Source of the DNA: Escherichia phage PDP46
Sequence record: PQ783785
DNA: 56,522 nt
Strand: one strand, 5' to 3'
Shown: piece after piece, positions 50,724-52,000 of the stretch
Layout: every line of letters starts with the position of its first letter
Numbering within the stretch: position 1 is the stretch's first letter
Program-made: the position numbers and the translations under genes
The notes under the pieces: generated by a model
Told to the model about the DNA's origin: nothing
Databases searched by the model: none
The model's input: only the letters and a program-made list of their open reading frames with translations

Positions 50724-50931
50724 ATTCGGTGCTGTAATCAAAAAAGAAGACCGTTATGCACATATTGATACCCGGATTACCTGGGTTGATATCAGTGAAG
50801 CTACTCTGTTCAGTTCAACTTACATGGCTGGTGTTGCACTTAAAGCACTTCGTGATCAAGGTTTCAATTGCAGAAAAGTAACAGTTGCATCTGTTAAAAT
50901 CACGCGGATCGTCGAGGAGACAGAAGGATGA
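50716..50931 (+). CDS. Hypothetical protein
   Basis: 71-aa ORF. Confidence 0.4.
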   Translation: MTEFGAVIKKEDRYAHIDTRITWVDISEATLFSSTYMAGVALKALRDQGFNCRKVTVASVKITRIVEETEG

Positions 50932-51608
50932 AAATTGTCTGGTCGTTATTCGATGGTTCCGGGATTATGGGCTTACCGTGGGCGATACATGGCTATCGGG
51001 TTTATTGTTTTAATGCTGATTCTGCTAATCACGGGGAATATTTTATTAAAGCCGATCACCCAAATCTTCATTACGTTAATCAGTGGATTGATCCACAATT
51101 TGCAATTAAGCAGGAAATACTGGGAACACCTTTACCGTCAATTATTTTTGGTTTTCCGGATTGCACCCTGTTTGCTCAAAGCGGTTCGCAACATGACCGG
51201 GATGACGCTGAACTACAGTATGCACTGGCAAACGCAAAACTGATTCGTGAACTCGGAGAACGTTATAACGTACCCTGGATGGTGGAAAACCCTGTCGGTG
51301 CTTTATCGCGTCCTGAAATGATGGGGACACCTGACGCTTATTTTCATCCGTGGGAATATGGCGGTTATATGACAACAGATGATAAACCTTTTCACCCTAA
51401 AATGCCGATGTTTGACGGATACACGAAGAAAACATGTCTGTGGTTCGGTAACGGTTTCAGAATGCCTGAAAAACGTCCAGGACCGATTAATATTGGTTTC
51501 TTCTGGGGCTGGAAATATCTGGGTGGTAAATCTGAAACAACTAAACAGTTACGTTCATTAACCCCGCGTGGCTTTGCTCGCGCTGTATTTGAGGCTAATA
51601 AACAATGA
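50928..51608 (+). CDS. Minimal C5-cytosine methyltransferase-like protein
   Basis: 226 aa; LFDGSG (motif I-like), FPDCTLFAQSG (PCQ-like), ENPVG (ENV-like) in canonical order; no target-recognition domain. Confidence 0.35.
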   Translation: MKIVWSLFDGSGIMGLPWAIHGYRVYCFNADSANHGEYFIKADHPNLHYVNQWIDPQFAIKQEILGTPLPSIIFGFPDCTLFAQSGSQHDRDDAELQYALANAKLIRELGERYNVPWMVENPVGALSRPEMMGTPDAYFHPWEYGGYMTTDDKPFHPKMPMFDGYTKKTCLWFGNGFRMPEKRPGPINIGFFWGWKYLGGKSETTKQLRSLTPRGFARAVFEANKQ

Positions 51609-52000
51609 TAATAGTCGTTACAGGCGGTCGTGACTTCAACGACAGAACAGCGGTATTTTCAGCATTAGGGTTACTTCACAAACAATTCCCGGTTACCGAA
51701 CTGATTGAAGGCGGTGCATCAGGTGTTGATAACCTGTGTAAGCAATGGGCGCAATTACACGGTATTCCTGTCCGCAGTTGTCCAGCAGCGTGGAACGATC
51801 TGACAGTGCCGGGTGCAGTAGTCAAACAAGGTAAGAACGGGCCTTATAACGCTGTTGCAGGTCATCAACGTAATCAGGCAATGTTAGAGGGTGAGCCACG
51901 CCCTATATACGGTGTTGTGTTCCCTGGTGGGCGTGGTACGGCTGATATGCACCGTCGTATGTTGAAAGCTGGTTTAACTGTGTGGGTTCCATATCCTTAA
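51605..52000 (+). CDS. SLOG / DUF2493-like Rossmann-fold protein
   Basis: 131 aa; IIVVTGGRDF and GGASGVD motifs. Confidence 0.45.
   Translation: MIIVVTGGRDFNDRTAVFSALGLLHKQFPVTELIEGGASGVDNLCKQWAQLHGIPVRSCPAAWNDLTVPGAVVKQGKNGPYNAVAGHQRNQAMLEGEPRPIYGVVFPGGRGTADMHRRMLKAGLTVWVPYP

Follow-up and report, generated by a model that had tools for sequence, protein, structure and literature searches.

A probable orphan Dcm-like DNA cytosine-C5 methyltransferase with an independent SLOG-family neighbor in Escherichia phage PDP46

The sequence analyzed here, hereafter the window, is a stretch of 56,522 nt from Escherichia phage PDP46 (record PQ783785), in which an open reading frame (ORF) for a 226-residue protein is followed directly by one for a 131-residue protein. 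It is very probable that the first of these, ORF 50928–51608, encodes an orphan S-adenosylmethionine (SAM)-dependent DNA cytosine-C5 methyltransferase of the phage Dcm-like family (PHROG 757), and that the second, which encodes a SLOG-superfamily protein, is an independent neighbor. This assignment is based on the predicted fold of the 226-residue protein, the order and conservation of its motifs, its family membership, the retention of residues that had been mutated in an experimentally studied homolog, and the absence of a conserved linkage to SLOG genes. Catalytic activity, biological role and sequence specificity of the protein are inferred from these observations.

A preliminary description of the same two ORFs, made from the sequence alone, had called the first product a minimal C5-methyltransferase-like protein with no room for a target-recognition domain (TRD). 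Both ORFs were found at the positions it gave, and the three motifs it had listed (FDGSG at residues 8–12, the FPDCTLFAQSG stretch and ENPVG at residues 120–124) are all present in canonical order. The motifs, the fold, the match to PHROG 757 and the homology to a Dcm-like protein of phage KarlJaspers bear out that description, and motif IX, which it had not mentioned, is present as well.

Motifs and fold of the 226-residue protein

The gene and the C5-methyltransferase elements of its product are as follows:

50928..51608, + strand: Dcm-like minimal DNA (cytosine-5) methyltransferase, 226 residues (from the ORF list)
50949..50963, + strand: motif I, F8-D-G-S-G12, the loop that binds SAM; a profile alignment sets it in register with the DNMT2 motif I
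51153..51167, + strand: motif IV, F76-P-D-C79-T80, with the catalytic Cys79 (codon 51162–51164), from conservation and alignments
51285..51299, + strand: motif VI, E120-N-P-V-G124, with E120 and P122 invariant in 83 family members and E120 aligned with E128 of the KarlJaspers protein
51420..51443, + strand: motif VIII-like strand, Y165-T-K167-K168-T-C-L-W172, from family conservation
51444..51551, + strand: vestigial TRD-equivalent segment, residues 173–208 (36 residues), the gap between the motif VIII-like strand and motif IX
51552..51581, + strand: motif IX, R209-S-L-T-P-R-G-F-A-R218, matching the R.LTPRE.AR pattern of M.HhaI

The order of motifs I, IV, VI and IX is thus the canonical one. 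Conservation was assessed in two sets of sequences, one of 59 close homologs and one of 83 diverse family members at 29–59% identity. In motif I, residues D9, G10, S11 and G12 were invariant among the close homologs, and the wider family conforms to FD.[ST]G. Motif IV lies within the stretch FGFPDCTLFAQSG (residues 74–86), which includes FPDCTLFAQSG, and its Cys79 was invariant in the diverse set. This residue aligned with C82 of KarlJaspers Dcm and with the cysteines of PPCQ in DNMT2 and PCQ in M.HhaI. Across the family, the motif reads PPCT in 99 sequences, PDCT in 95 and PSCT in 24, indicating that PDC is a variant of the canonical PPC and involves no insertion.

In the motif VIII-like strand, Y165, K167, T169 and W172 were invariant in the diverse set. 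The two lysines, K167 and K168, which are proposed to substitute functionally for motif VIII, aligned with K175 and K176 of KarlJaspers Dcm, predicted substrate-binding residues. The stretch RSLTPRGFARAV at residues 209–220 fits the motif IX pattern R.LTPRE.ARLQ and, by direct reading of the two sequences in register, is identical to RKLHPRECARVMG of M.HhaI at 6 of 13 positions. R209, S210, T212, P213 and G215 of this motif were invariant in the close homologs and nearly so in the wider family. Of motif X (GN.V) there is only a vestige, A223-N224, in which N224 was invariant among the close homologs.

No distinct TRD was found between motifs VIII and IX. The gap between them comprises 36 residues here and 106 in M.HhaI, and the same holds throughout the family (median 36, range 29–76), in agreement with the earlier statement that there was no room for such a domain.

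The protein is predicted to have a class I Rossmann-like SAM-methyltransferase fold with elements specific to C5-methyltransferases, and its structure is closer to those enzymes than to other methyltransferases. Foldseek matched DNMT3A and DNMT3B at E about 1e-6; generic Rossmann methyltransferases aligned over only about 120–145 residues. The sole low-confidence segment comprises residues 82–88, directly after the catalytic cysteine, which we take to correspond to the mobile active-site loop of M.HhaI. At the sequence level, weak alignments were obtained in the correct register, covering motifs I, II and IV with DNMT2 and motif IV with M.HhaI.

By comparison with the known enzymes, the protein would act as a single catalytic domain in which SAM is bound in a pocket made by FDGSG of motif I and N29. 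The target cytosine would be flipped out, its C6 attacked by Cys79 of FPDCT as nucleophile and its N3 protonated by Glu120 of the ENP motif, with K167 and K168 standing in for the arginines of canonical motif VIII. In a manner similar to DNMT3, motif IX (RSLTPRGFAR) and a loop region some 36 residues long would serve in place of a full TRD.

The Dcm-like family, the KarlJaspers homolog and sequence specificity

The 226-residue protein matched PHROG 757 ("DNA methyltransferase") over residues 1–225 at E = 5.6e-79. Its homologs formed 628 clusters at 90% identity and 1,768 clusters at 50% identity (E ≤ 1e-3), almost all of them 200–260 residues long. By tblastn, 1,490 of 50,697 phage records contained a member, in many cases labeled Dcm or C5 methylase, and the carriers include T1-like Drexlerviridae (TLS "dcm"), Webervirus, rV5-like and phapecocta-like phages. 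The gene itself is 99% identical to deposited sequences already annotated as cytosine methyltransferase. The preliminary description had treated it as a curiosity; it is an ordinary and widespread methyltransferase gene, already known and annotated, with an experimentally studied homolog.

Two family members from outside the window have unusual architectures. In P0270 (548 residues), an intein interrupts the protein exactly at catalytic motif IV (FGFPPC|FTGDT...IVHN|CTNLSVSG), and the insert matched the Pfam families Hint_2 and LAGLIDADG_3. In P0219 (348 residues), the Dcm-like domain is fused to a C-terminal HNH_2 endonuclease (PF13391, E = 6e-8); here the minimal methyltransferase may be the basis of a homing element or of a restriction-modification element in a single chain.

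The studied homolog comes from the BASEL phage KarlJaspers (Bas06), in which a gene of exactly 711 bp is annotated as "Dcm-like C5 cytosine methyltransferase". BLASTP aligned its product with the 226-residue protein over the full length at 43% identity (E = 9e-59). The KarlJaspers-type gene was examined in phage K42, whose genome is 95.4% identical to that of Bas06, in a preprint on retron Ec86 (bioRxiv 10.1101/2023.08.16.553469), published later as Wang et al., Cell Rep 2024, 43:114857 (reference list of PMC13158370). All four phages that escaped the retron had lost or disrupted the gene, and expression of the K42 gene alone was toxic only when the retron was present (bioRxiv 10.1101/2023.08.16.553469). 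Liquid chromatography coupled to mass spectrometry (LC-MS) showed high 5-methylcytosine (5mC) in the multicopy single-stranded DNA (msDNA) of the retron with the wild-type K42 enzyme, the product co-eluting with a 5mC standard, and low 5mC with a C82A/E128A/K175A/K176A mutant or an empty vector (bioRxiv 10.1101/2023.08.16.553469). The mutated residues had been picked from an AlphaFold2 model superposed on DNMT3A (bioRxiv 10.1101/2023.08.16.553469), a structural relationship that we found independently. All four are conserved in the protein described here (C82 as C79, E128 as E120, K175 as K167 and K176 as K168), and across the family they vary little or not at all. Because of this one-to-one correspondence and the 43% identity, the 226-residue protein is a clear homolog of an enzyme demonstrated to methylate DNA at cytosine C5.

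Several observations weigh against the assignment. The acidic residue of motif II, an aspartate in most of the family, is an asparagine (N29), and the motif VIII-like strand YTKKTCLW has two lysines in place of the canonical QxRxR. Neither Pfam, even at E ≤ 1, nor NCBIfam gave a match to the protein, which falls below the PF00145 threshold; only one of the 83 diverse family members touched PF00145, at E = 0.0067. Against PDB sequences, phmmer and two family hidden Markov models (HMMs) returned nothing significant, the best non-significant match being DNMT2, and hhalign against an M.HhaI-centered profile aligned motif IV alone (E = 0.2), the profile being a narrow one of sequences at 71–80% identity, which makes for a weak test. 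Methylation has been demonstrated only for the homolog, which is 43% identical and has a different TRD-equivalent loop. The CCWGG specificity of the phage enzyme was taken from the literature on the host Dcm, its own sites being unmapped, and the assays were done in dcm+ MG1655, in which, as long as the phage enzyme was missing, 5mC in the msDNA was low and the retron inactive (bioRxiv 10.1101/2023.08.16.553469). Finally, the BASEL study reported no simple link between these methyltransferase genes and resistance to restriction. The common annotation of the family relies on fold-level similarity that Pfam and NCBIfam miss.

Given the low 5mC and the inactive retron in dcm+ MG1655, the phage enzyme must be unlike the host Dcm in its level, the form of its substrate or the sequence it prefers. 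The recognition sequence of the 226-residue enzyme is possibly CCWGG, and alteration of CCTGG in the msDNA stem-loop abolished defense (bioRxiv 10.1101/2023.08.16.553469). In the whole window, CCWGG occurs 97 times, compared with 55 ± 7.7 expected from dinucleotide-preserving shuffles, none of which (0 of 100) reached 97. The site is over-represented and not avoided, which is compatible with protection but non-diagnostic. Since the host Dcm protects the same site, we set these counts aside as a test of specificity.

A tentative suggestion, and one that we consider rather doubtful, is that the TRD-less Dcm-like family is not specific for CCWGG, and instead recognizes a very short or relaxed sequence or prefers hairpin or single-stranded DNA. 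Recognition of this kind would explain why, in dcm+ E. coli, Ec86 msDNA has little methylation and the retron is quiet before the phage enzyme appears, and also why BASEL found no simple relation to restriction resistance. If the suggestion is correct, the family would represent the smallest natural DNA C5-methyltransferase architecture, with some 36 residues in place of a TRD, and a compact tool for broad-spectrum anti-restriction. The CCWGG specificity implied by the label "Dcm" is an assumption for the TRD-less family.

During infection, an enzyme of this kind would methylate the replicating phage DNA as well as other DNA in the cell, and so blunt cytosine-sensitive restriction. By analogy with the K42 homolog, it would also make the phage vulnerable to retron Ec86, a sensor of methylation on its own msDNA. 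The phage is therefore predicted to be sensitive to retron Ec86 (Eco1). Our search for literature on methylation in 9NA or Sashavirus found none.

That the protein is catalytically dead or acts on something other than DNA, either as a regulatory subunit like DNMT3L or as a tRNA methyltransferase like DNMT2, appears very unlikely to us. The missing Pfam match, the vestigial TRD, the non-canonical motif VIII and the non-significant DNMT2 match among the PDB sequences would fit such a role. The reading as an active DNA methyltransferase is supported by the DNA methylation by the K42 homolog and by the two variant family members, whose intein at the catalytic cysteine and fusion to an HNH endonuclease count as DNA-acting context for the family.

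The SLOG gene and the early operon

The second gene, which the preliminary description had assigned to SLOG/DUF2493, does belong there. Its 131-residue product passed PF10686 (YAcAr/DUF2493) at E = 1e-19, and the same domain was present in 120 of 120 SLOG homologs among the matches listed. The AlphaFold2 model had a pLDDT (predicted local distance difference test) score of 96.1, and the glycine-rich loops GGR, GxxxGxD and PGGxGT are invariant. The protein is thus a genuine SLOG/YAcAr protein. We know of no ligand or activity for the YAcAr family. Neither this protein nor the methyltransferase was matched by PADLOC.

The two genes and their surroundings are arranged as follows:

49782..49811, + strand: promoter-like site (10 of 12 hexamer matches) just past the primase gene, upstream of the operon of small ORFs, methyltransferase and SLOG genes
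50526–50723, + strand: small ORF upstream of the methyltransferase gene in the same operon, putative lipoprotein, with an annotated counterpart in phage Sasha
50716–50931, + strand: 71-residue protein matching PHROG 26050, with an annotated counterpart in Sasha
51605..52000, + strand: SLOG-superfamily protein of the YAcAr/DUF2493 family, 131 residues (from the ORF list)
52009..52037, + strand: promoter-like site (11 of 12 hexamer matches) directly 3' of the SLOG stop codon, at the start of the next (ParB-like) unit

The 71-residue ORF and the methyltransferase gene share an ATGA overlap at 50928–50931, and both small upstream ORFs are translationally coupled to the methyltransferase gene. The two promoter-like sites are consensus matches only; AVIO78A, a relative at 93–94% nucleotide identity, carries annotated promoters at positions equivalent to both. 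Between these sites lies a translationally coupled early operon, which follows the primase gene and ends with the methyltransferase and SLOG genes. The methyltransferase gene would be transcribed as its second-to-last gene.

The region 50500–52400 was nearest to Sashavirus BDX09P1 (97% identity), followed by Escherichia phage vB_EcoS_PJ16 (Nonanavirus; 96%), with weaker matches to the Salmonella phages Sasha, Sergei, Solent and 9NA. Because of these matches we take the window to be a 9NA-like siphovirus genome (Sashavirus/Nonanavirus). In the records of these relatives, the methyltransferase gene is labeled "cytosine specific methyltransferase", "C-5 cytosine-specific DNA methylase" or "DNA methyltransferase".

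Linkage between the two genes was examined from both sides. Among 80 viral methyltransferase loci (homologs at 55–99% identity, a sample biased to at least 55% because the close-homolog alignment was used), a SLOG gene lay within 4 kb in six, all of them from the closest relatives of the window, and a broader SLOG HMM did not change this number. No gene was conserved beside the methyltransferase across the 80 loci; the recurrent neighbors encode endolysin, spanin-like, NinG-like and Sir2-like proteins and small proteins of unknown function. Conversely, a Dcm-like gene was nearby in 10 of 84 viral SLOG loci, seven of which belong to the clade of the window. The other three, among about 77 distant SLOG loci, are L159, in which the two genes are adjacent in reverse order, L164, in which they lie on opposite strands, and L144, which is marginal. 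The commonest neighbor of SLOG was a DEAD-box helicase gene at the +1 position (16 loci), with nuclease and beta-clamp genes also common, and HelB of ICP1 is a fusion of a helicase to DUF2493.

L159:4001-5088 (IMGVR_UViG_3300036715_002351) is an independent and rare case of adjacency, in which a SLOG gene whose product is 39% identical to that of the window is followed by a Dcm-like gene with a 7-nt overlap.

Each gene also occurs alone among the relatives of the phage. In 9NA the methyltransferase gene is present and SLOG absent. Bas82 and AVIO78A, both 93–94% identical to the window in nucleotide sequence, have only SLOG at the locus; in Bas82 a 198-bp ORF takes the place of the methyltransferase gene, and in AVIO78A SLOG directly follows the 71-residue ORF. 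This separate occurrence argues that the methyltransferase gene is a presence/absence cassette, inserted upstream of a SLOG gene that is resident in the replication module.

The gene is cleanly present or absent among phages of 93–97% nucleotide identity. The slot downstream of SLOG is variable too: Sasha has an HNH endonuclease gene there and AVIO78A a gene whose product is described as NADAR-like, and in the window it is empty.

The preliminary description had implied that the two proteins work in partnership. A two-gene module, with SLOG as, for example, the source or processor of a nucleotide substrate or a modified base for the methyltransferase, would accord with the 4-nt ATGA stop/start overlap and co-transcription of the genes, with the nucleotide-processing LOG enzymes among the relatives of SLOG, with the adjacent pair in L159 and with the presence of both genes within 4 kb in L164. 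We nevertheless consider such a module extremely unlikely. Neither co-occurrence nor adjacency was conserved across divergent genomes: SLOG accompanied the methyltransferase in a single clade, the methyltransferase had no conserved partner gene, each gene was found without the other in the 9NA-like relatives, and SLOG kept company most often with helicases, to which it is fused in ICP1. No SLOG gene is annotated within 3 kb at the KarlJaspers locus, and the K42 homolog methylated DNA when expressed alone (bioRxiv 10.1101/2023.08.16.553469). The pairing is lineage-specific, without a functional link, and SLOG is best not taken as part of a modification pathway. The SLOG/YAcAr gene is a separate accessory gene of the replication module and probably encodes a nucleotide- or single-stranded DNA-binding protein.

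Other genes of the window and comparison with known systems

The preliminary description had further suggested that the phage may carry more than one modification activity, citing a Dam gene and an NDT-like gene. The first part stands, with Dam and the Dcm-like protein making two DNA methyltransferases encoded by the window:

37750..38388, − strand: Dam-type N6-adenine DNA methyltransferase, the second DNA methyltransferase (PF05869, E = 1.9e-30; NPPY at residue 101)

The second part was not upheld, as Pfam and PHROGs searches of about 30 non-structural ORFs found no NDT-like gene. The gene meant may be an ORF that has no family match, such as 38944–39480 or 16764–17222. With both methyltransferases, the phage DNA is expected to contain 5mC in addition to Dam-type N6-methyladenine, with consequences for restriction digests, cloning and nanopore base-calling. 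The least probable reading of all, that the enzyme installs another C5 modification such as a carboxymethyl group from carboxy-SAM (Cx-SAM), or that it starts a hypermodification pathway, is extremely unlikely, given that 8yf3 scored no better than ordinary C5-methyltransferases, that the product of the K42 homolog co-eluted with a 5mC standard in LC-MS (bioRxiv 10.1101/2023.08.16.553469), and that no TET-like, glycosyltransferase or Cx-SAM synthase gene was seen among the conserved neighbors or the scanned ORFs of the window.

Several other features were observed in the window. The region 14001–18000 is an island of low GC content (0.36–0.39, compared with about 0.44 elsewhere) that may have been acquired recently; it contains an ORF for a 307-residue protein (14272–15195, − strand) with CapR-homology repeats and a MUG113/T5orf172 (GIY-YIG-like) domain. 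A few genes downstream of the methyltransferase and SLOG genes, in the same early region, a 189-residue protein (54434–55003, + strand) has an HD_4 domain resembling the RelA/SpoT hydrolase (PF13328, E = 3e-15; PHROG 990, metal-dependent phosphohydrolase). A full-length RdgC homolog (PF04381, E = 1e-115) is encoded at 1811–2725 (− strand), and genes of nucleotide metabolism were found at 11537–12040 (− strand; dUTPase, PF00692, E = 7e-19) and 46230–46736 (+ strand; Rv2179c-like 3'-5' exoribonuclease, PF16473, E = 2e-48).

Among known systems, the closest to the 226-residue protein is KarlJaspers Dcm, which belongs to the same family. Both are single-domain proteins (226 residues here, 236 in KarlJaspers) encoded by orphan genes in the early region of a phage, and the catalytic cysteine, the glutamate of ENP and the lysine pair are conserved between them. 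They differ in the phage lineage that carries them, a 9NA-like Sashavirus here and a Hanrivervirus of the Drexlerviridae there, in motif IV (PDC and PPC, respectively), and in the TRD-equivalent loop (residues about 181–196), which is variable and rich in insertions and deletions, and differs in both sequence and length.

The relationship to the catalytic domains of DNMT3A and DNMT3B is more distant, with only 12–15% identity. The DNMT3 catalytic domain comprises about 280 residues, has a longer TRD and the canonical RxR of motif VIII, and forms oligomers together with regulatory domains. The classical bacterial enzymes of PF00145, including M.HhaI, M.HaeIII and E. coli Dcm, are about 100 residues longer than the phage protein, which PF00145 does not recognize, and differ from it in the much longer segment between motifs VIII and IX and in having the QxRxR arginines where the phage protein has lysines. 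In the SLOG superfamily (PF10686, LOG, YpsA, DprA and the SLOG domain of ThsA), the 131-residue protein represents a minimal, stand-alone form, without fusion to an effector or a helicase.

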